A stretch of DNA of 35,253 nucleotides from an uncultured Verrucomicrobiota bacterium (GCA_964535205.1 CAZHSS010000001.1:1-35253); one strand, 5' to 3'; positions 1-22,297 are shown, numbered from the stretch's first letter. A program made the numbers and translations. Notes: generated by a model from the letters alone, not told the origin.

Positions 1-47
1 ATGCCACGCCTGTTGTCGTCACAAACACCCGCTCAATCACCACTAAT

Positions 48-1877
48 TTGATCGGCATGCGGGTGACGGTCGAAGATTCCCGGGACTGTGTCACAGGAGG
101 AAATCCCGGACGGCAAAACGAGGTGGCCACATTGGAAGTGCGTGATTTGCTTGAATGCGGCTATTACGTGGATATTGAAATAGAAGGATCGGTTGAGGAT
201 GTGGACGACGGTTATGACATGGTTTATTTCGAGGCCCATAGCAACAACTTCTATTTTTCAAGCCATGACGGCATTCCGGATGGGCTTAAAGAAGAATGTG
301 TTATGATAGATGAAAATGCAGAGAAAAACAATCTCATACTCGCCAACAGCACCGTTGTTCTGCGATACAACACGGTTGGCTATCGATGGCACAGCGGTGC
401 GTATGCCGAGATCATTCATGCAACGAATACAGGCCCCTACAAGGTGGTCGTTTCCGGGGCTGATGTGATATGCGTCGGCGAGACAGCGCAGATGGAGGCG
501 TCCGGTGCCGCCGGAGCACCCTTCACCTGGAGCGGCAATGGCGATATCTCGGTCAGCACGAATGGCGAAGTGACCGGCCTTGCCCCGGGAATTGCCACCG
601 TCATCGCCACCGATGCGGGCGGTTGTAGCGGAGAAAAAGAGATCATCATACTTAAGGTGGACTTGGATATAGATGCAAACTATGACGGGTCCATTGATGA
701 CGCAGATGACTATTCTGAAGAATCGCCAGGAGGCCTCGTTGTTCATTCAGATTCTTGGGATGATCGACCATTGACGAAAATCATCATTCAGAAGGTTCAG
801 CCGGAAGATTTGGATTGCAGTGTGGATCTTTCAATCTCGGCGGGCATATCAAAGATAGAGCTTTTCGAAGACTTTTTCGGAACCCAGCAAATATCTTTTT
901 TCCCTGTTACTTATCAGAATAGCGATTTGCCAAAGACGTTATGGGTTCGCTCTTGGGATACAAGTGATGCATTGGGCGATATAGAGTTTCAGCTTCAACT
1001 GAACACAATCGCCGAATGCCAAGACATCGTCCGGGGCACGTCGATTGAAGTTGAATATACTAATACTGTAAATCAAAAATACGGGTTTGATGGAGAGACC
1101 GATTTGCCAATATATTGGAAATCTATAAAGTGGTCGGATTCCGATACGGCTTTTGCGAAAATGGATCCCATTGCAGCCTCAACTCGCGTAAAATTCTCTT
1201 CGAGTTCTCCTGACATTTCCGTATCGCCTTCATCCGCTTCGACTTCTCCGGAGACTCTTACTCTTACCTCGCTCGGCACGATGGACAGCTCGATTGGGGC
1301 GGATTTGGGCGCAATTGATTATCTCAGGGCGGCTTTTCTTAATGTTAAAAACTATAGCCTTATAGAGAAGAGAGTGGCTCTTTATCGCGTTGTTGAGGGA
1401 GTAAGCAATATTCCTCCAGTTGACGCCACTTCAGCGGCCACCATCCAGGCGTATTTGAATGATTCAGTTTACAATCAGTGCGTAGCTGAATTTGAAGTTG
1501 TTGATTTTGGCATGACGAATGTGAACTATGATCTTAATAACGATGGTAAACTAGAGTACTCGTCGCCATTATCATCGGAGGCTCAAGTTATTTGCAGCGC
1601 CATTCCGCTCCCAGCTAACTTTGATTACGTTGTTTACCACGTTCACGACATTGCTGGGGCAAATGGATTTGCAAATCGAAATAATACGTATGCTTTTGTG
1701 CGTGATGGTTCCTTGTCAATACGCAACTTAATTGCCCATGAGCTTGGTCATGCTTTCGGAAATCTTCCAGATGGGGGGCCTTCTCATTGGCTGATGAACA
1801 ATACGGGTAATTGCGATGAGGGGAAAATGTTTTTACCCAAAGCTCATTGGGACCTGATCGATTCAAGACACCGCTAA
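48..1877 (+). CDS. Secreted Big_2 (bacterial Ig-like) domain protein with C-terminal zincin-type metallopeptidase motif; probably 5'-partial
   Basis: 609-aa ORF. The frame stays open back to window position 3 and there is no signal peptide at the first in-window start (TTG 48), so the true N-terminus probably lies upstream. Ig-like group-2 type segment VVVSGADVICVGETAQMEASGA...GIATVIATDAGGCSGEKEIIILKV. HELGHAFG (HExxHxxG) lies about 45 aa from the C-terminus. Low-GC codon usage. Stop TAA 1875-1877. Confidence 0.75.
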   Translation: MIGMRVTVEDSRDCVTGGNPGRQNEVATLEVRDLLECGYYVDIEIEGSVEDVDDGYDMVYFEAHSNNFYFSSHDGIPDGLKEECVMIDENAEKNNLILANSTVVLRYNTVGYRWHSGAYAEIIHATNTGPYKVVVSGADVICVGETAQMEASGAAGAPFTWSGNGDISVSTNGEVTGLAPGIATVIATDAGGCSGEKEIIILKVDLDIDANYDGSIDDADDYSEESPGGLVVHSDSWDDRPLTKIIIQKVQPEDLDCSVDLSISAGISKIELFEDFFGTQQISFFPVTYQNSDLPKTLWVRSWDTSDALGDIEFQLQLNTIAECQDIVRGTSIEVEYTNTVNQKYGFDGETDLPIYWKSIKWSDSDTAFAKMDPIAASTRVKFSSSSPDISVSPSSASTSPETLTLTSLGTMDSSIGADLGAIDYLRAAFLNVKNYSLIEKRVALYRVVEGVSNIPPVDATSAATIQAYLNDSVYNQCVAEFEVVDFGMTNVNYDLNNDGKLEYSSPLSSEAQVICSAIPLPANFDYVVYHVHDIAGANGFANRNNTYAFVRDGSLSIRNLIAHELGHAFGNLPDGGPSHWLMNNTGNCDEGKMFLPKAHWDLIDSRHR

Positions 1878-1894
1878 TGATTAAGGCATGCACC

Positions 1895-2857
1895 ATGAAA
1901 CATAACGCGTCATTATCTGTAATATTTTTTATCTTTTCACTGTCCCTTTCGGCAGGTGCTACAGAGGTCAACAACGCTTCATTCATTGCCGCGGTAGAAA
2001 AGTCTATAACCGCCGTAAAGAAGGGGGAGCCGTTCAGACTGGTCGATATTCCCCTTGCGGTTACCGATGATTCCCTGCAATTGCTTGAAAAATATAAGAA
2101 AGACCCTTCCCCAGATGTGCGCGAAGCCGCTCTTACTATATATTGCAGGATCGGTATTCGCTCAAAAGACATGGAAGTTCGACAGCGCGCGGTCGATAAT
2201 TTGGTCGAGGGGATTTTTGACTCATCAACCCTCGTTCGAGAGCATATTTCAAAACTGCTTTTTGAATTTTCACCAGAAGACTTTTCTGTTGGTGCAAAAA
2301 ATAGATTAATGGCGGCTATACAGACTAAGCCTGACTATAATGTGGTATTGGCTGTCGGGGTGGCGAACATTCAGGAGGCACTTCCCATTCTTTCAGAAAT
2401 CAGAACAAACGAAGTGGAGCGAATCGAACAGCTTATGGCTCGTCAAAGAGCTGACTCCGGTCTGTATCAGCCACGTTGGGATGTGTCCAGCCTGTACCGG
2501 GGTTCTTTGCTCGCATCCGGACGAATGGGGGAAACTTATGCAATTGAAGAATACATTCATCGCGTAGAAAATTTAGAGGAACTCTCCACACGCATGTACT
2601 TTATTAATTTATTACAGTATGTGCGACAACCAGAAGTAATTGAATTTCTTTTGAAATATTTGGACTCCAACGAATTCTATGGCGGCGAAGGAGATGTTGT
2701 AAAAGCTTTTGTAGCAGTAGATTCCGCTGAAATGTTAGTAAGTATGATCGATGGATTTCCAAGCCGGGAATATCTTGAACAAGAAGAAGCATACATCGCA
2801 CGTTGTAGAGAATGGGTATCGAATAATCCCGATAAAGTGGCGCAACAAACTGATTAA
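1895..2857 (+). CDS. Secreted HEAT/ARM-like repeat protein, function unknown
   Basis: Start chosen at ATG 1895 (MKHNASLSVIFFIFSLSLSAGA, a typical signal peptide) rather than the ORF-track start 1847, which overlaps the upstream gene. HEAT-like repeats DPSPDVREAALTIYCRIG and MEVRQRAVDNLVEG. Stop TAA 2855-2857. Confidence 0.7.
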   Translation: MKHNASLSVIFFIFSLSLSAGATEVNNASFIAAVEKSITAVKKGEPFRLVDIPLAVTDDSLQLLEKYKKDPSPDVREAALTIYCRIGIRSKDMEVRQRAVDNLVEGIFDSSTLVREHISKLLFEFSPEDFSVGAKNRLMAAIQTKPDYNVVLAVGVANIQEALPILSEIRTNEVERIEQLMARQRADSGLYQPRWDVSSLYRGSLLASGRMGETYAIEEYIHRVENLEELSTRMYFINLLQYVRQPEVIEFLLKYLDSNEFYGGEGDVVKAFVAVDSAEMLVSMIDGFPSREYLEQEEAYIARCREWVSNNPDKVAQQTD

Positions 2858-2882
2858 TAGATTCGCTATCCTTCTCTTCTGG

Positions 2883-2915
2883 TAAAGGGGCCGTAAAGGG
2901 GCCGTAAAGGGGCCG
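2883..2915. repeat. Three perfect tandem copies of the 11-mer TAAAGGGGCCG
   Basis: Read directly: copies at 2883-2893, 2894-2904 and 2905-2915. A perfect TATAAT hexamer follows at 2920-2925 on the + strand. Confidence 0.95.
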
Positions 2916-2981
2916 GTCCTATAATTTGATGTTTTGTCCATTTCATTCCTCTGGAATTGGTTAAGAAGGCCATATTTGACG

Positions 2982-3087
2982 TTTTTGGGGCAAAAATGAC
3001 CGAAAAATGCCTCAAAATCGCGATTTTGGGCCTATTTTGAGCATTTTAGGACTGAAAATACCGTTTTCGGTCCGTTTTAGGCGATTT
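2982..3087. promoter_or_regulatory. Helically phased A/T-tract array (predicted intrinsically curved DNA) at the low-GC/high-GC junction
   Basis: Eleven A4-5 or T4-5 tracts start at 2982, 2992, 3003, 3014, 3024, 3035, 3044, 3055, 3064, 3074 and 3084. Spacings are 10, 11, 11, 10, 11, 9, 11, 9, 10 and 10 nt. The later tracts have a degenerate unit like cgATTTTgRg. Confidence 0.7.
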
Positions 3088-14980: not shown

Positions 14981-15301
14981 CTCTGTCTCATTGTGTAGGA
15001 TTCTCCACATTCCGTACGGATATTTTTGTGCAGAATACGCCTGTGGATACGAACACGACAACAACTTTCACCCCCTCGATGATCTGCTCTTTTGCGAACC
15101 GTTGCCCTTCAGGCTATAACTCTCACCGAATATGGTCCGGAAATTGGGGGAACGTCAGTCCCACGACCCGACTCCGGCATTTCCGCAATAGGGCATAATT
15201 GGGCCCTTTCGTAACTGCAATATCAGACCATCCCATTGCTTCCGCGCGGACAAGCTAGCGCACCGGGATTTGGCTTGGACAGGTCACGGTTCTAGCCGGC
15301 A

Positions 15302-15314
15302 GGGGGGGGGGGGG
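15302..15314. repeat. G13 homopolymer tract (C13 on the - strand)
   Basis: Read directly. It is intergenic, 64 nt downstream of the last paralog stop (15378) and about 320 nt upstream of the SGNH hydrolase start (14980) on the - strand. Confidence 0.95.
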
Positions 15315-15377
15315 ATTTGCCTGCGGAAACCTCACACCGAGATAATTGGTCTCATCGAGGCGGGAGATTCCCTTAAT

Positions 15378-15968
15378 CTATTCTTCTGGGTCAATAGGTC
15401 CAACTTCCCAATTGAACGTACCGTTCTCCGTGGCACCGATTCTCCAATCTAGTATCTGGAAGAGCTTAATATGAGGAAATGCATTCGAATATGTCTTATG
15501 CATATATTCAATTTTTTCGGGGGAACGAGCATGATATGGAAGATTTGTTGGATTCGATTCTCTTGAGATATGTATTGGGCTAGCCATTGGGACACGTTCC
15601 TTAATAATTTCTTCAGGAACCCGGTTTGAAACAGCCAGGACATAAGCCTGAGCGGCAGCTTTCGCGGCAAGATAATCCACTTCTGCTACGCGGTAATACT
15701 CGAATAAAAGCCCCATGGCAAGAAGATCATTGGTGTTCTCCGCTAAGCGATTAGTGATGGCGGTTTTAATTCGCGGATAGTTGGTTTCCATCCATGCGGC
15801 ATTCACCTCCTGCACGAATGGGTCCGCATCGTAACCGCTGGAGACGCCATCACCGTCCACTGCAAAGTATACCAGGCTAAGGTCAATTTCTCCATCCTGA
15901 CTGAATCCACAACCGGGGAATATGATTGCATGAATTGAACATATAAGTGCAATGGTTTTAATATTCAT
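15378..15968 (-). CDS. Secreted (possible lipo-)protein, paralog 4 of the tandem ~180-aa family
   Basis: 196 aa. AGGAAGG lies 7 nt upstream of the ATG. Signal MNIKTIALICSIHAIIFPGC. Shares VNAAW.ETNYP.IKTAITNRLAENTNDLLAMGL..EYY...VDYL.AKAAAQAYVLAVSNRVPEE ... PTNLP ... EYMH ... DPEE with the three upstream genes. Confidence 0.8.
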   Translation of the reverse strand: MNIKTIALICSIHAIIFPGCGFSQDGEIDLSLVYFAVDGDGVSSGYDADPFVQEVNAAWMETNYPRIKTAITNRLAENTNDLLAMGLLFEYYRVAEVDYLAAKAAAQAYVLAVSNRVPEEIIKERVPMASPIHISRESNPTNLPYHARSPEKIEYMHKTYSNAFPHIKLFQILDWRIGATENGTFNWEVGPIDPEE

Positions 15969-16036
15969 GGGTTAACCTTCCTGACTTCTCTACCAAGTAT
16001 TCTTTCGTTGAGGGATACAATTGTTGCAGTTTTCAT
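15965..16036 (-). pseudogene. Relic 5' end of a paralog-2-like gene (23-codon ORF MKTATIVSLNERILGREVRKVNP)
   Basis: ATGAAAACTGCAACAATTGTATCC resembles the paralog-2 start ATGAACACAGCAACAACCGTTATC. It sits in the same position relative to the conserved 3' flank of the preceding gene. Its TGA overlaps the paralog-4 ATG (ATGA). Confidence 0.4.
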
Positions 16037-16195
16037 ATGCTCAGGACAGCATAGGCTGTTGGGCTATTCTTCCGGATCAACAAATCCAACACCCCAGATT
16101 AACTTGCCCTCTTCTTGGAGTTTTACGCGGCCTGCCACGATTTGATAAACACCGACATGTGGAAAACCATCTGAATACGTGCTGTGCATATATTC
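16033..16195. repeat. Direct repeat copy A (3' end + 3' flank of paralog 3)
   Basis: Hand alignment with 17181-17343 (offset 1148 nt) gives 6 mismatches in 163 nt. Beyond this block, mismatches become frequent and fall mostly at 3-nt spacing. Confidence 0.85.
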
Positions 16196-16609
16196 TATTT
16201 GAGCAGGGGTTCTCGCCTGTTCAGGTACAGAAGGCAGATTTGTGGGCATAGCCTCGCGAGCATATACTAGTGGAAGTTTCATTAGATCCCTCTGCTCATT
16301 TATCTCCTCCGGAACACGATTAGATACCGCAAGCACATACGCTTGGGCAGCAGCTTTTGCATTAGTGTAATTCACTTCTGCTGAAATATAGTATTCAAAT
16401 TGAATGCCCAGCGCCAGCAGGTCATTTGTACAAATTGCCAATCGGTTGGTAATTGCCTGCTTGATCAATGGGTAATTCGTGGCTACCCAAGCGGTATTGA
16501 CCTCTTCGATAAAGGCGTCTTGCTCACATTCCGCATAAGAGGAGGCTACTGCGGGAACAACAGCCATTAGCGCAAGTATAACGAATTTACTATGCAGCAG
16601 CGATTTCAT
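16064..16609 (-). CDS. Secreted protein, paralog 3 of the tandem family
   Basis: Start set at ATG 16609 (MKSLLHSKFVILALMAVVPAVASSYAEC). 181 aa. The C-terminal 53 aa are identical to paralog 1. Confidence 0.8.
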   Translation of the reverse strand: MKSLLHSKFVILALMAVVPAVASSYAECEQDAFIEEVNTAWVATNYPLIKQAITNRLAICTNDLLALGIQFEYYISAEVNYTNAKAAAQAYVLAVSNRVPEEINEQRDLMKLPLVYAREAMPTNLPSVPEQARTPAQIEYMHSTYSDGFPHVGVYQIVAGRVKLQEEGKLIWGVGFVDPEE

Positions 16610-16650
16610 TCTGCAGCATGTGTAATTCACGCAAATTGACCAGTTGCGAT

Positions 16651-17184
16651 TCAATCCCTGTTCAATGGGTTGAAATAGCCATTTGTGACCAAGCCTTGCT
16701 CTATAGCCTCGATGCGGAACATGAGGCTTTGGTAGAGGATAAGCGAAGGATAATTCTCGGGATACTCATCATGCAGAAATTGCATCTGTTCTGGCGTTTT
16801 GGACTGATCAGCAGGAAAGTTGGTTGGGATTGGCATTTCGACAAGAGAAATTGCCCCTTCCAAAGGGGCCCGTTTATGAATCACTTCCGTTGGCATGCGG
16901 TTGGATGTTGAAAGGATAAAGTCTGATGCGGCGGCACGGGCTTTATAGAAGTCAATCGATATATCATCATAATATTGATACAGTAATCCTTTCGCTAATA
17001 AATCATTTGTACAATCAGCAACACGGTTGGTGAGCACCTGCTCCAACAGGGTGTAATTGCTGGCCACCCAGGCCGAATTAACGGCTTGGATAAACAAGTT
17101 TGTATCACTGCACTCCGCATATCCGGGTGCTGGTACGAATATGCCTATAAAAAGGCATATGATAACGGTTGTTGCTGTGTTCAT
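16651..17184 (-). CDS. Secreted protein, paralog 2 (most divergent member) of the tandem family
   Basis: 177 aa. Signal MNTATTVIICLFIGIFVPAPGYA. Retains EC...VNSAWVASNY...TNRVADCTNDLLAKGL and PTNFP, but has a different C-terminus (…FNPLNRD). Confidence 0.78.
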   Translation of the reverse strand: MNTATTVIICLFIGIFVPAPGYAECSDTNLFIQAVNSAWVASNYTLLEQVLTNRVADCTNDLLAKGLLYQYYDDISIDFYKARAAASDFILSTSNRMPTEVIHKRAPLEGAISLVEMPIPTNFPADQSKTPEQMQFLHDEYPENYPSLILYQSLMFRIEAIEQGLVTNGYFNPLNRD

Positions 17185-17343
17185 ATGCTCAGGACAGCAT
17201 AGGCTGTTGGGCTATTCTTCCGGGTCAACAAAGCCAACGCCCCAGATTAATTTACCCTCTTCTTGGAGTTTTACGCGGCCTGCCACGATTTGATAAACAC
17301 CGACATGTGGAAAGCCATCTGAATACGTGCTGTGCATATATTC
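17181..17343. repeat. Direct repeat copy B (3' end + 3' flank of paralog 1)
   Basis: See copy A. It includes the stop codon, about 27 nt of downstream flank, and the ATG of the next gene. Confidence 0.85.
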
Positions 17344-17748
17344 AATCTGCGCTGGTGTTCTTGCCTGTTCTGGCACGGGGGGCAGGTTTGTAGGAACGGG
17401 ATCCCAAGCAACGCTAATTGGCAAGCCCATAGGAATTCGCTTCTCATTCACTTCTTCTGGAATACGGTTTGACACGGAAAGAACATATGCCTGTGCCGCC
17501 GCTCTAGCGCTAAGATAATCCACTTCAGCAGACATATAATACTCGAAATACAGACCCATTGCCAGAAGATCGTTTGTGCATTCTGCCAAACGATTGGTGA
17601 TCGCCTGCTTAATCAACGGATAGTTCGTGGCTATCCATGCGGCGTTTACCTCCGCGATAAACTCATCAGACTCACATTCCCCATAAGTGTATGGTCCGCA
17701 TACTGCAACCACAATAAGCATGGCGGATATTAGAATTTTTGTTTTCAT
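17212..17748 (-). CDS. Secreted protein, paralog 1 of the tandem family
   Basis: ATG 17748 preceded by AGGAAGG (8-nt spacer). The alternative GTG 17757 overlaps the giant gene's TGA. MKTKILISAMLIVVAVCGPYTYGEC..., about 178 aa. Confidence 0.8.
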   Translation of the reverse strand: MKTKILISAMLIVVAVCGPYTYGECESDEFIAEVNAAWIATNYPLIKQAITNRLAECTNDLLAMGLYFEYYMSAEVDYLSARAAAQAYVLSVSNRIPEEVNEKRIPMGLPISVAWDPVPTNLPPVPEQARTPAQIEYMHSTYSDGFPHVGVYQIVAGRVKLQEEGKLIWGVGFVDPEE

Positions 17749-17753
17749 TAGAT

Positions 17754-20700
17754 TCACCTTCCTGCTGCTTGTTCCATAAGTGCTCTTGTCGATTCAATCA
17801 AACCTATGGAATTGGTTTCGGCAATGCCCCCTCCGGGCCATTCCTTGGAAACCCTCATGCCTGGAGGCTGCATATCCAATGCGTTGGTCTGAATAACACT
17901 TGCCAGCGAATAACCCTGTGCCAGAGCAATTCCGGCATCATAGCATTCCCGGGCATATTGATCGTCCTTAGCGCCGACAATTCCGCCTTTAAAGAACCGA
18001 TAAGCATTCGGACCGTAGGGCAAAAGCCAAGAAGGGATGCCCATGTGATAGGCAAACATGGCAAAGCCCATGTTATTGCGCTTGGCAAAATCCGTCACAT
18101 AGGGACGGGAGTTACCTGCAATCACAAATCTTGAGGAATCCCCCGCTGAATCGTCTGTTGTGTATGCATGGGCAAGCCCGCAGATGTCTTGCCAACGCTC
18201 ATGTGGGGTTACATAGTCGAAATCAAGGCCAATAGTTTCAAGGTCGTTAAGCCATAACTCCGCTTTTTTCTCTTCGATCCTATTGGTATTACTGTGATGT
18301 TCAGCAGGCAACTCTGAAAGGGCCCTTGTCGTCTTGTAGGCATCATAATCGACAATCCAGTCATCGAGATAGTCGATTTCCCGCTGAAAGTCCACGGAGA
18401 TATCCGGCCCGCTGACGGGGAGCCACATCTGCGAGGTGATGGGGTCGGCACCGGGGATGGTGGTGGTGAAGGTGTAGAGCCCGCCTTTGGTGGCATTGGA
18501 GAACGTGGCGACGGGTTGGTCGCTGTTCAGCAGAGTTCCCGAGTTGGGCCCGTCGGTTTTCGCCCAGGTCACGCCCGGCAGGTCTTCGGGATGGACGTGC
18601 AGGGTGACATTGAAGTTTGTGGGATCGCCTTCGGGCGTAGAGGCTTTATCAAAGAGAATGGTAAGAGCACGCCCCTGTTTGTTTTGATCGATTCGTGCAG
18701 CCTCCTTTTCTTCCGCCCATACCGGATAACACACGAGTTCCGGCGGATCGGAGCCGAAACCCACAGGGGACTTCTCCGCCAAACTGCATTCCAGTTCAAC
18801 AAGAAATCCAATGGGTTCGATGGTGCCATAGGCGAAGAATTCATTTGTCCATGGGCGACCCGCCGTATAAGTCGGGGTATAGACATCGCCGCCGGTCCCG
18901 ATTGTGGAATAGCTTTGCAGCCGGTAATCCGAATAGGTGCTCATTCCCTGCGGGCGAAATGCCTCCAGCCACATCATCTTATAGACCACGCCGCTTGTTG
19001 TCGGTATCATCCATCGGTACTGCAGGTCCTGAAGGAATAGATTAGTGTGGTCCTCTGAGAGAAGGGAGGCAGAAAATATCTCGTTGGTGGGCAGGCTCTC
19101 TATCCAAGGTTCCTGCCGGTGATTCTCGCGTGTCCAACGCTGCCCCCAGGTAATGCCGGCCCAGTTGAGCAACGGCGGAAGATCCTGAACCGTATAAAAC
19201 AAGAGCATATCCGTTGTGTATTCGTTGGTTAGCGCGGTGGTTTCATACTCGAAGGAATCCGGATCCGGTATGCCCCACGTCCACAGGTAGTGATCATATG
19301 CATTGCTAATGCCCGATGATGTATGGGTGCTGACCTCGAGTTCATCATCCAGCGGCATCAGGCAGGTGTTCACGTTGTATGACAACGGGATGATAGCGCC
19401 GTTCAGGTATTGCGTGCCGTGCACAACCAAATATTCATTGGGCTGCTCATACTCATAGGCGACCTGCCATATGGAGTGATATTCTTCATAGCCCCCATAT
19501 AGATGATAATTGTCATAGTAGCTCTCTTCTCCCCTGCATACATGATTGGATGGCGTGTCGGGCCAGCCATTGGGATCAAATTGCTTCAGGCATAAACGGG
19601 ATGCCGAGTGGATCATGTGTTCGCTGACATCCTCATCCGAATAGTGGCCGTCTCCATTGGCTTCGTATCTGGCTTCTCGACTCAAATACCACTTGGGCGG
19701 ATCGGAGGGCGGCAGAAACGAATTGGTGTATTCGGGATATCCTTCTTTTTGCCGATATGTGGACACGGCTTTGGCTTCTAAGTTGTCCTGGTCTAAATAG
19801 ATGTAACCGCCGCCAGATGATCGGCGGAGTTCCGCCGGATTTGGATTGTAGTACACAAAAGTTACTTCATTCGATTCGAACATTGGAAGGCCCAATTCGT
19901 ATTCTTCCCGGTTTGTCAGATGATCCCCATCCGGATCTTCTTCCGCATCGGTCGCGTTGTTGGGATCAAGACCCAGACTGATTTCCACTCCATCCGGAAT
20001 GGAATCCGCATCTGTATCGGCATCTTCGGGGCTGGTCCCATAGGTGTTGACCTCATCGCCATCGGATAGACCATCGCCATCGGTATCTGCCAGGGTTGGA
20101 TTGGTCTCTTCCTTGTATTCCTGAATATTGGTTAGGCCATCCCCATCTTTGTCGCCAAAAGCATCATACATGTCCGCGATGCCGCTAGGCCCCAGGGCAC
20201 CCGCATATACTCGGATATCGTCCAGCATGCCTTCCCATTTTTCCGTATAGAAAGGATCCTGCCCGTCACCCAGGGAAAAGCGGGCGTTGCCGGCATTGGT
20301 AAAGGATGCGGTCACGGCGCTCCCGGCTGGCGCTCCATTGAGATAAAGCTGCATCTGGGCGCCATCATACTCCATGGCCACCCATATCCATTGTTCTATC
20401 CGTGCCGTATTGTCCGTCAGCATGGTATTGTCCACCATACCAAACGCATGCGCCGAGGAATTAAAACCTATACAATAGCCGATATAGTGGTAGGAAGGCA
20501 GAATGCTCATATCGCTGATAATTTGCGGGTAGTCCGATGTGCAGTTGCCATCCAGCCATACCCAGGCGCTGACCGTAAACGGCCCCCCCGTCAACATGGC
20601 GGTGGCCTGGACGATCTCCACCCTGTCGTCTGATCCATCAAACCGCAAGGCCCCGCCAATTTTGCCTGCTTCAGCCCATCCGCTGTTCGTCGTTTCTGTA

Positions 20701-21887
20701 AACCCGATCAATTCTCCGTGAAAATTCTCTGTGGCTGAATTGAGCGCATTCGTTCCCTCGCCGTCGTCCAGCTTCCACCACCCCAGCAGCGACTCATCCA
20801 GTCCGGATCGGGCATTCATGCCATATTTCACTTCCCAGCCATCCGGCATGCCGTCCCCATCCGTATCCGACATTTCCGGGTCCGTGCGGTACAGGAATAT
20901 CTCCTGTCCGTCGGAAAGGCCATCGCCATCACGGTCCTGCCGCTTGCTAGCGGCATAATAGCGGATTCGGTCGTTGCCGGTTATATTCGTATCCTCCCAA
21001 GTACCCGCTCCGTTGGTCAGCACGAGATTGGTTGTTCCATGGACCCACTCGCTTTCGATGCCGTTGAACCCAGGCGAAACCGGGTGCCAGACCGTATTCG
21101 TGCGCGTGATCACTTCGTCATATTCGTTTGTCCAGGTGGACACCACGACCGACGATGTGTGCCCTACTGTATAGGTATAGATTTCCGCAATGTCCGTTCC
21201 GTTCGTGACAGCAATCAGCATGGTGCCGTTCGTGGTTATCTGGGAGCAACAAAACCCGAATTCATTGCCTCCCAATCTGTTCTTAGCCATTACGTTCGAT
21301 CGCTTCATTTTCATGGCGTTATAAGTAGAAAGGGTATTTGCGATTCGGCTTTCGGTGTATAGGTAAGGCTCGACATCCTCGGCGGGGAGCAAATCCAGTA
21401 TCAGGGTCACGCGGGCCGGGTCGGCATCCTCGGGCCATTCGCGGGACACCCGGTCGGCCGGGATGGTCGCAATCAACTTGCCCTCGGCATTGTAAACGAG
21501 GGTTTCGCGCGTCTTCGGGTCCTGCGTCAGCGATAGAGGATAAATCGCCACGCTGTTCTTGTCCTCGCCCAACAGTTCATCGAGAAACTTCTCGTCGAAG
21601 TTGTCGGCATCAAACGGCACCACAGACGGAAACATCGGCTGAACCCAGGAAAATCCCGGCGGGGTCATGCGGTTGAACCGGCGGCGCTGGATTTCCGCGC
21701 CCTCCGCCAAGTCCTGAATATCAAAAACCTCGTTTTCGATGAAATCGGCGTACTGCTCGGCTTCGACGGCAGCGGACTTTTCGATCCGTGCCAAATCCGA
21801 CGCAAGAGCGGCAAGACAAAGTGCGGCGGCAATGGCGGCGATGCCAATCCCGATGACGGGCTTGTGGTTCATCCTCGGTATTCTCAT
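17754..21887 (-). CDS. Giant signal-anchored/secreted protein: N-terminal region, TSP3 Ca-binding repeats, LamG (laminin-G_3/concanavalin-like) domain, second TSP3 block, ~700-aa C-terminal region of unknown function
   Basis: Start set at ATG 21887 (AGGAG 8 nt upstream): MRIPRMNHKPVIGIGIAAIAAALCLAALA. TSP3 repeats DRDGDGLSDGQ / DTDGDGMPDGWE (about 20800-20940). LamG region LLGWWKLDDGEG...ALRFDGSDDRVEI...FTVSAWVWLDG...MQLYLNGAP...LDDIRVYAGAL (about 20190-20790). TSP3 block DKDGDGLTN...DTDGDGLSDGDE...DTDADSIPDG...DPDGDHLTNREE (about 19890-20160). Stop TGA 17754-17756. Confidence 0.85.
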   Translation of the reverse strand: MRIPRMNHKPVIGIGIAAIAAALCLAALASDLARIEKSAAVEAEQYADFIENEVFDIQDLAEGAEIQRRRFNRMTPPGFSWVQPMFPSVVPFDADNFDEKFLDELLGEDKNSVAIYPLSLTQDPKTRETLVYNAEGKLIATIPADRVSREWPEDADPARVTLILDLLPAEDVEPYLYTESRIANTLSTYNAMKMKRSNVMAKNRLGGNEFGFCCSQITTNGTMLIAVTNGTDIAEIYTYTVGHTSSVVVSTWTNEYDEVITRTNTVWHPVSPGFNGIESEWVHGTTNLVLTNGAGTWEDTNITGNDRIRYYAASKRQDRDGDGLSDGQEIFLYRTDPEMSDTDGDGMPDGWEVKYGMNARSGLDESLLGWWKLDDGEGTNALNSATENFHGELIGFTETTNSGWAEAGKIGGALRFDGSDDRVEIVQATAMLTGGPFTVSAWVWLDGNCTSDYPQIISDMSILPSYHYIGYCIGFNSSAHAFGMVDNTMLTDNTARIEQWIWVAMEYDGAQMQLYLNGAPAGSAVTASFTNAGNARFSLGDGQDPFYTEKWEGMLDDIRVYAGALGPSGIADMYDAFGDKDGDGLTNIQEYKEETNPTLADTDGDGLSDGDEVNTYGTSPEDADTDADSIPDGVEISLGLDPNNATDAEEDPDGDHLTNREEYELGLPMFESNEVTFVYYNPNPAELRRSSGGGYIYLDQDNLEAKAVSTYRQKEGYPEYTNSFLPPSDPPKWYLSREARYEANGDGHYSDEDVSEHMIHSASRLCLKQFDPNGWPDTPSNHVCRGEESYYDNYHLYGGYEEYHSIWQVAYEYEQPNEYLVVHGTQYLNGAIIPLSYNVNTCLMPLDDELEVSTHTSSGISNAYDHYLWTWGIPDPDSFEYETTALTNEYTTDMLLFYTVQDLPPLLNWAGITWGQRWTRENHRQEPWIESLPTNEIFSASLLSEDHTNLFLQDLQYRWMIPTTSGVVYKMMWLEAFRPQGMSTYSDYRLQSYSTIGTGGDVYTPTYTAGRPWTNEFFAYGTIEPIGFLVELECSLAEKSPVGFGSDPPELVCYPVWAEEKEAARIDQNKQGRALTILFDKASTPEGDPTNFNVTLHVHPEDLPGVTWAKTDGPNSGTLLNSDQPVATFSNATKGGLYTFTTTIPGADPITSQMWLPVSGPDISVDFQREIDYLDDWIVDYDAYKTTRALSELPAEHHSNTNRIEEKKAELWLNDLETIGLDFDYVTPHERWQDICGLAHAYTTDDSAGDSSRFVIAGNSRPYVTDFAKRNNMGFAMFAYHMGIPSWLLPYGPNAYRFFKGGIVGAKDDQYARECYDAGIALAQGYSLASVIQTNALDMQPPGMRVSKEWPGGGIAETNSIGLIESTRALMEQAAGR

Positions 21888-22297
21888 TGGGCATGCTCCT
21901 GGGTGGTGGCATGAACCCGGTGCCGCGCAAAACTGGTAAGAGGCGCGAACTCCAAGCCCATGCCCTGTAGAGGGACCGACAAGCCCCACCGAAGAACACA
22001 AGACGAGGAGCCGCGCCCATGGTGGGCGCGTCTTTCAAGTCTCGTTCTTCGGTTGAAAGCTGTCGGTTTTCTACAGAACGATTCCCCGCTCGCGCGGGGA
22101 AGACTTCAAAACGCAAATTGATAAAGAACAGCGTCCGAACAATAACCGTTCCGGAACTACTGTACTTATCGTAGAAGCTGGAGCATATGGCAAGAATAAA
22201 TATTAGAACAAAAGGACAAAATGCCAAAAGACAGGGCAATTGCCGGGCGCAAGCGATCTTGACGCCTCCTCCCCTTTTCTGCACCTTGCCTTCCATC

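Follow-up and report, generated by a model that had tools for sequence, protein, structure and literature searches.

Exchange of sequence between paralogous genes of one bacterial genome is a familiar process, examples being gene conversion between tufA and tufB or cassette exchange of the pilE/pilS type. The present study deals with a short tract of near-identity shared by two diverged paralogs, P1 and P3, of an uncultured Verrucomicrobiota bacterium. The stretch of DNA that was analysed, in the following called the window, has a length of 35,253 nt (GCA_964535205.1 CAZHSS010000001.1:1-35253) and represents one whole contig of a 1.94-Mb metagenome-assembled genome (MAG), which is 61% complete and consists of 366 contigs. 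P1 and P3 belong to an array of four paralogous small genes, P1 to P4, which are located head to tail on the minus strand directly behind a giant open reading frame (ORF; 17754-21887, minus strand).

In T6SS (type VI secretion system) clusters of Vibrio cholerae, arrays of orphan immunity genes result from the displacement of effector-immunity modules, and illegitimate joins have been invoked for the addition of cassettes (Kirchberger et al. 2017, PMC5361080). Orphan toxin-immunity cassettes also occur in contact-dependent growth inhibition (CDI; CdiA-CT/CdiI) and Rhs systems (Poole et al. 2011, PMC3150448), for which recombination between main gene and orphan is an accepted route of diversification according to the part quoted in PMC5361080. 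Hallmarks of such effector-immunity loci include arrays of orphan partner genes, orphan cassettes of C-terminal modules, and low-GC islands in varying contexts (PMC5361080, PMC3150448).

The tract comprises 175 nt and is present as copy A at 17169-17343 and as copy B at 16021-16195 (both minus strand), with 8 mismatches between the copies (95.4% identity) and exact common runs of 59 and 43 nt. The original prediction had been derived from a hand alignment of 16033-16195 and 17181-17343 and reported 6 mismatches in 163 positions. The computed ungapped alignment, with an offset of 1148 nt, returned exactly this count (16076, 16085, 16091, 16103, 16106, and 16166), while the full tract turned out to be longer. 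Copy A contains the last 43 codons and the stop codon of P1 (17212-17748, minus strand), the spacer, and, from P2 (16651-17184, minus strand), the functional ATG together with 5 codons. Copy B contains the last 43 codons and the stop codon of P3 (16064-16609, minus strand), a spacer of 27 nt, and a relic start of the paralog-2 type, again an ATG with 5 codons. Thus the block does span the gene ends and stop codons as predicted, but the proposed extent of about 44 codons with some 30 nt of flank has to be revised to 43 codons, the stop, the 27-nt spacer, and the P2-type start. The relic ATG belongs to an ORF of 23 codons (MKTATIVSLNERILGREVRKVNP; 15965-16036, minus strand), the TGA of which overlaps the ATG of P4 (15378-15968, minus strand).

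The borders of the tract are sharp. Identity between the two regions drops to 69% on the 5′ side (16196-16545) and to 26% on the 3′ side (15990-16020). A maximum chi-square scan placed the breakpoint at 16195, and none of 10,000 permutations reached the observed statistic (p<1e-4), with the same outcome for all sites and for third codon positions alone. Inside the tract 6 of 43 third codon positions differ, compared with 70 of 117 outside (Fisher p=1.3e-7), and first and second positions show no differences at all within it; in the non-coding or spacer flank that belongs to the tract, 2 of 43 positions differ. Synonymous divergence between P1 and P3 according to Nei-Gojobori amounts to a proportion of differing sites (pS) of 0.22 and a corrected distance (dS) of 0.26 over the 43 codons, whereas the remainder of the genes is saturated (pS 0.75-0.88), with a non-synonymous distance (dN) of 0.13-0.36. 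Divergence is therefore far from uniform along the gene pair.

This step in silent divergence coincides with no step in the encoded protein. P1 and P3 share a C-terminal stretch of 54 identical residues, one more than the 53 initially counted, which extends beyond the tract into the 11 codons immediately 5′ of it (16196-16228 in P3, minus strand). These codons carry 8 synonymous and no non-synonymous differences. Since an identical protein constraint thus stands beside an abrupt change in silent divergence, recombination is the only explanation: a step of this kind within one gene pair requires it, either as gene conversion or as a retained duplicate segment. The older divergence of P1 and P3 took place under purifying selection, with a dN/dS ratio (omega) well below 0.2. 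In this respect the picture of an old, selectively constrained duplication with a homogenised patch on top is borne out.

The idea that the C-terminal module is under particularly strong constraint overstates the case, because 43 of the 54 identical residues are identical as a result of copied DNA. Across the family, the C-terminal 44 residues show 24-84% identity to P1 and are no better conserved than the N-terminal part (46-80%), and the invariant residues of the family alignment lie mostly in the N-terminal two-thirds. The only hint of extra constraint comes from the 11 codons upstream of the tract (Poisson p about 0.02, an estimate).

Both junctions of the tract were recovered from closely related strains. 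L031, an ENA assembly, is 98.85% identical to the window over 19042-15488 and has the order P1-P2-P3-relic-P4 with the same 8 copy-specific differences and a few private ones. L037 to L039, JGI assemblies from three samples, are 99.57% identical and contain both junctions and the same 8 differences. The tract is thus a real feature of the genome and not an assembly artefact. It is also old on the scale of these strains and predates their split, as the giant gene, P1, and P4 of the four sampled strains are 99.4-100% identical to the window. The term "recent", which had been applied to the patch, was not upheld, since dS is 0.26 and all 8 differences are common to the four near-identical strains. 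Exact-pattern scans of JGI metagenome contigs gave no match to the P3-type tract variant and none to the shared 56-mer. One Logan contig, L029 (k=31), was considered as a possible P3-P2 recombinant. It is ambiguous and probably a graph artefact, as it switches from the P3 to the P1 copy within the 59-nt exact block and then runs into P2, which nearly closes a cycle of 1148 nt.

The same strains differ from one another mainly by short segments of the small genes. Between L031 and the window, 32 of 41 differences fall within 16300-16592 of P3 (minus strand; dS 0.34, omega 0.16), with 0-1 differences in the giant gene, P1, and P2. L037 differs from the window at 21 positions, 17 of which lie within 76 nt of P2 (16846-16921, minus strand). 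L012 is identical to the window over 16407-16683, and from 16406 toward the 3′ end its P3 orthologue shows divergence at the level of paralogs and represents a type absent from the other samples. With several short-tract exchanges, of which the tract is one, the array is a hot spot of recombination; in sister strains, imported alleles occupy the segments 16300-16592 of P3 and 16846-16921 of P2. P3 (181 aa) is a mosaic gene in which a 5′ part of its own type is joined to a middle part and to the P1-type tract. At a single position of the P1-P2 spacer, 17201, the window has A and four other assemblies have G; A is also the base of the P3 copy at the equivalent position 16053, so that either a micro-conversion of one site or a point mutation may be responsible.

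Taken as a whole, the 175-nt block probably represents the footprint of non-allelic homologous recombination, or, in a broad sense of the term, of ectopic gene conversion. The 3′ end of P3 would now consist of a copy of the junction between the P1 3′ end, the spacer, and the P2 start, and the donor would have been the P1-P2 junction or an allele of it. This junction is the preferred source because at no other place does the ATG work as the start of a gene; behind P3 it opens just a dead ORF of 23 codons. The edge at 16195/16196 is a crossover within continuing P1/P3 homology. The edge at 16020/16021 is of a different nature and coincides with the abrupt end of all homology, 16 nt into the P2-type start region. 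As homology flanks the tract only 5′ of 16195, one has to assume either an earlier P2-type relic or an illegitimate join: a P2-type gene start may already have been present downstream of P3, or it may have been joined there illegitimately. The 16021 edge is accordingly no crossover within homology but that of a deleted P2-type gene or of an illegitimate join. With both paralogs intact, simple conversion leaves this dead stop of homology unexplained.

Further information on the order of events is provided by L012, in which a different giant C-terminus directly abuts P2, and this P2 starts with MKTAT, as the relic does. It follows that the P1-P2 junction is itself a derived joint, that the tract must post-date this joint, and that one flank difference can be assigned to each lineage. 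Within the tract, the mismatches are not evenly spread: 5 of 14 third positions differ at 16067-16106 compared with 1 of 29 at 16107-16195 (Fisher p=0.01). Such clustering would fit several events or patchy repair. The mechanism as such is ordinary, a textbook mosaic with one short ectopic recombination tract between tandem paralogs.

Several points weigh against this reconstruction. Canonical conversion needs homology on both sides, but beyond 16021 identity is at the random level. The direction of copying is deduced from the relic start only. Moreover, a protein tree of 100 N-terminal columns is a polytomy in which a P1+P3 clade is not rejected (approximately unbiased test, p=0.136), and phylogenetic incongruence is therefore not shown independently of the silent-site argument. 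In this N-terminal part P1 is closer to L013, L023, P0006, and P0007 (76-80%) than to P3 (71%).

The end of homology at an illegitimate-looking junction exactly within the P2-type start speaks for an alternative, which we nevertheless regard as unlikely. Here, the tract would be the unreplaced remnant of a younger tandem P1-P2 duplicate, the P2 copy of which was deleted to 16 nt and the P1 copy of which later had its 5′ two-thirds replaced through the import of divergent P3-type alleles. In that case the "patch" would be older than the rest of P3, which would have arrived afterwards. Replacement of P3 segments was in fact seen directly between near-identical strains (16300-16592 in L031, and from 16406 toward the 3′ end in L012), and the divergence of the import is similar to that of the tract (dS 0.34 and 0.26). 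On the other hand, one or two events suffice for conversion, and three would be needed here, namely duplication, deletion, and replacement. In addition, 16195 must have been the exact end of the replacement, although the next 11 codons encode identical amino acids. Finally, no strain with an intact second P2 behind P3 was found, with the sole exception of the doubtful k=31 contig L029.

Low silent divergence could also be caused by selection on the nucleotide sequence in place of recombination, through an antisense gene, an internal promoter or leader, or an RNA element, and we consider this very improbable. Plus-strand ORFs of 76 and 74 aa (16021-16251 and 17169-17393) begin exactly at the tract edge, and in both copies the tract lies directly upstream of the next gene. 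An antisense ORF over the tract was rejected, however, because the frame is closed by 2-6 stops in P2, P4, and all 12 of 12 homologues from other loci, and all 6 silent differences would alter the antisense peptide. Beyond the P2 start, the non-coding flanks of the two copies are unrelated, and such a block is found in no other sampled array, as the arrays of L016, L020, L033, and L035 have no tract with more than 90% identity. Rfam gave no match in 15000-18000, no promoter or terminator site was found inside the tract, and the 61-nt flank of stop codon and spacer has no stable fold in either copy (z-scores of -0.4 and -0.1). Least credible of all is an error of short-read metagenome assembly, with a repeat that was collapsed or mis-threaded in the bin: the 61%-complete MAG of 366 contigs, the exact runs of 59 and 43 nt, and the ability of a k=31 assembler to switch copies in L029 speak for it, but four independent assemblies from different samples (window, L031, L037, and L038/L039) agree in gene order and copy-specific variants, these variants are interleaved through the tract with each junction to unique sequence 10-30 nt from one of them, mis-threading could swap the distal parts of the copies only and not create the tract, and, as no k-mer of at least 21 nt is common across either copy-B junction, a de Bruijn chimera should be unable to create these junctions.

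The small proteins encoded by the array form a rare family with 72 cluster representatives among 1.84 billion proteins. No match was obtained in Pfam, NCBIfam, or PADLOC, and the family is unnamed and unannotated. The structure model of P1 (178 aa) is of good quality (predicted local distance difference test, pLDDT, 87.8) and consists entirely of helices, nine in number. Its best Foldseek matches are TPR domains, and they are weak (E-values of at least 0.34, TM-scores of at most 0.39), with no Pfam TPR match. A signal peptide and a mostly conserved pair of cysteines indicate that the small proteins are exported. As a pair, these residues (..EC.. and ..CTND..) are missing from P4-type proteins (P4, P0010, and P0013), and P0011, P0014, and P0015 are without the first cysteine only; the covariation is thus not strict. 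P4 (196 aa) has in addition a 20-aa insert. P2 (177 aa) is of the B-type.

The giant ORF encodes a predicted exoprotein of 1377 aa, counted from MNHKP, with a signal peptide, bacterial TSP3 repeats, a LamG domain, and a C-terminal module of about 400 aa (residues 969-1377). Apart from these adhesin-type parts, weak matches to MtsD, CglD, and TafC were found through the repeats. A small gene follows immediately; in the window and 11 other loci the two genes either overlap by 4 nt or are separated by no more than 9 nt, and this adjacency was observed in every locus recovered, down to giants with 30-39% identity. Across loci, an array comprises between 1 and 4 small genes. Between the giant's final 77 residues, which are 35-81% identical among the modules, and the first small protein there is covariation (Spearman 0.77 for 66 pairs), which is due in part to vertical co-descent.

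Types of C-termini and types of small genes tend to go together. Genes of the P1 type are found directly after type-1 giant C-termini, and the cognate type-2 C-terminus of P2 occurs only in other loci (L012 and L020). The first giant C-terminus of L020 (L020a) is followed by a P4-type gene, and an orphan ORF of 419 aa in the same locus corresponds to giant residues 969-1376 and has its own P2-type small gene behind it. This orphan C-terminus (L020b) is 77% identical to that of L012, and the P2-type genes that follow them are 80% identical. The genome of the window, at its completeness of 61%, contains one giant only and four types of small genes.

A further joint was observed in L012 behind the P3-like gene (L012:1366-1443). 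Here a sequence, ...QPLGMRVAKEWPENADPARVTLLLDL, connects the motif MRVSKEWP, which is located 30 aa before the end of the giant, to the giant N-terminal region RVSREWPEDADPARVTL. The giant of the window has both motif copies (17834-17873 and 21390-21440), about 3.6 kb apart, and the joint in L012 may be a recombination joint or a 5′-truncated second giant.

Concerning the function of the array, by analogy with effector-immunity loci we see about an even chance that the small genes are immunity-like partners of the giant C-terminal module. P1 would be the resident cognate of the giant and P2 to P4 would be orphans, and, as in effector-immunity arrays, displacement of cassettes would have built the array and recombination would have reshuffled it. 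Some observations speak against a role as effector. Residues 969-1377 of the giant gave no match in Pfam, NCBIfam, PADLOC, or to sequences in the PDB, no toxin or enzyme domain was detectable there, and the model of this part is poor (pLDDT 55) and found no fold match. In addition, the TPR-like resemblance of P1 is weak (E-values of at least 0.34), and the C-termini of the giants are all homologous, unlike the unrelated ones of classical polymorphic toxins.

The alternative is a non-antagonistic pair, in which the small proteins would be docking, chaperone, or anchoring partners of the giant C-terminal module and the array would reflect diversification of a surface or adhesion system. This is possible, although we lean away from it, and it concerns the function of the array and not the origin of the tract. 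It would account for the adhesin-type parts of the giant (TSP3 and LamG, with the weak MtsD, CglD, and TafC matches), for the failure to find a toxin domain, and for the TPR-like helical fold of the P1 model, which would be typical of binders. In L013 and L014, moreover, type II secretion pseudopilin genes adjoin the module. Less easily reconciled with docking partners are the accumulation of orphan partner genes without their giant, which decay in some strains, the existence of a cassette of orphan C-terminal module and partner in L020, and the nature of the module as a low-GC island in varying genomic contexts. Decay of orphans is visible in two strains, as P2 of L012 has an in-frame stop and P4 of L037 is interrupted by an insertion sequence (IS). 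In the latter (L037:4642-6529, corresponding to about 15699-15701 of the window), P4 is split by an insertion of 1.3 kb with an rve-family integrase gene, and the rest is 99.6% identical.

Near-identical strains that differ almost solely by short swapped segments in small genes point to selection or opportunity for the reshuffling of partner specificity. They also offer natural chimeras, namely P3 of the window, P3 of L031, P3x of L012, and the P2 variants, for mapping the part of the small protein that reads the giant C-terminus. A more far-reaching view, which we regard as quite improbable, would see the conserved junction of a small-gene 3′ end and the next start as the substrate of recombination for adding, displacing, and shuffling cassettes, and the patch as a scar of array building. 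The giant and the small exported helical proteins would then form an undescribed, self-contained polymorphic effector/immunity-like system of bacteria of the Planctomycetes-Verrucomicrobia-Chlamydiae (PVC) group. In the literature, no paper was found that pairs Kiritimatiellota with "polymorphic toxin". Irrespective of its function, the setting of the tract is an undescribed family of giant-protein/partner cassettes with frequent short-tract shuffling, and is of moderate interest.

The module differs in base composition from its surroundings. GC content is 45-56% in 15001-22000 and 64-69% in the flanks, and at third codon positions it is 0.41-0.48 in the small genes compared with 0.76-0.79 in neighbouring genes. 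The same is seen in several independent assemblies, namely L013, L014, L005, and L025, where modules with 42-55% GC lie inside genomes with 64-71% GC and giants are 56-75% identical; the low GC content is therefore persistent and not merely a sign of one recent transfer. In these assemblies the module adjoins high-GC genes of differing neighbourhoods, one of them in a genome of the same genus labelled Lentisphaerae bacterium AS10tlH2TH_169. In L013 (L013:3046-5257) and L014, the module of giant and small gene has genes for type II secretion pseudopilins (GspG/H/I/J-like, N_methyl) with high GC content directly downstream.

At the island edges of the window, no flanking direct repeat of at least 11 nt was found. 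A JGI contig, L016, has a perfect direct repeat of 34 nt (CACTGTCATCCCATAGCGGGTGAAAGAAAAGGC; L016:448-481 and L016:5234-5267) that flanks the entire module of giant and two small genes, and a DDE_Tnp_1 transposase gene comes after the bracketed module. The island could have left this repeat pair as a scar of insertion or as an att-like scar. At the contig start of the window (1-3000), GC content is likewise low (44-49%), and this second stretch contains an ORF of 624 aa without Pfam match and an ORF of 336 aa with HEAT repeats.

In comparison with described systems, the array resembles those of the V. cholerae T6SS in that behind a large secreted protein come first its cognate small gene and next further small genes whose partners occur only in other strains, and in that the arrays are mosaic and reshuffled by homologous recombination. 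In contrast to V. cholerae, all small genes here belong to one paralog family and all giant C-termini are homologous. The window contains no T6SS, VgrG, PAAR, or adaptor gene, toxic activity is not recognisable, and the host is a PVC-group MAG (labelled Lentisphaerae/Kiritimatiellia). The event itself, an ectopic exchange between two members of the array, is not described in that account (PMC5361080). With CDI and Rhs systems the loci share 5′-truncated orphan C-terminal modules, each with its own downstream partner gene, behind the main gene, as found in L020. Unlike these systems, they have no CdiB or two-partner secretion, Rhs/YD, or PAAR parts, no demarcation motif of the VENN or PxxxxDPxGL type was identified, and their C-terminal modules are 35-81% identical over the last 77 residues instead of being unrelated. 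Compared with the exchange of the tufA/tufB or pilE/pilS type, nothing indicates that transfer was programmed or took place repeatedly in one direction, one border lies outside homology, and the tract includes a piece of a third gene, the P2 start. It nevertheless agrees with intragenomic gene conversion in being a short tract of near-identity with sharp borders between diverged paralogs in direct orientation about 1.1 kb apart.

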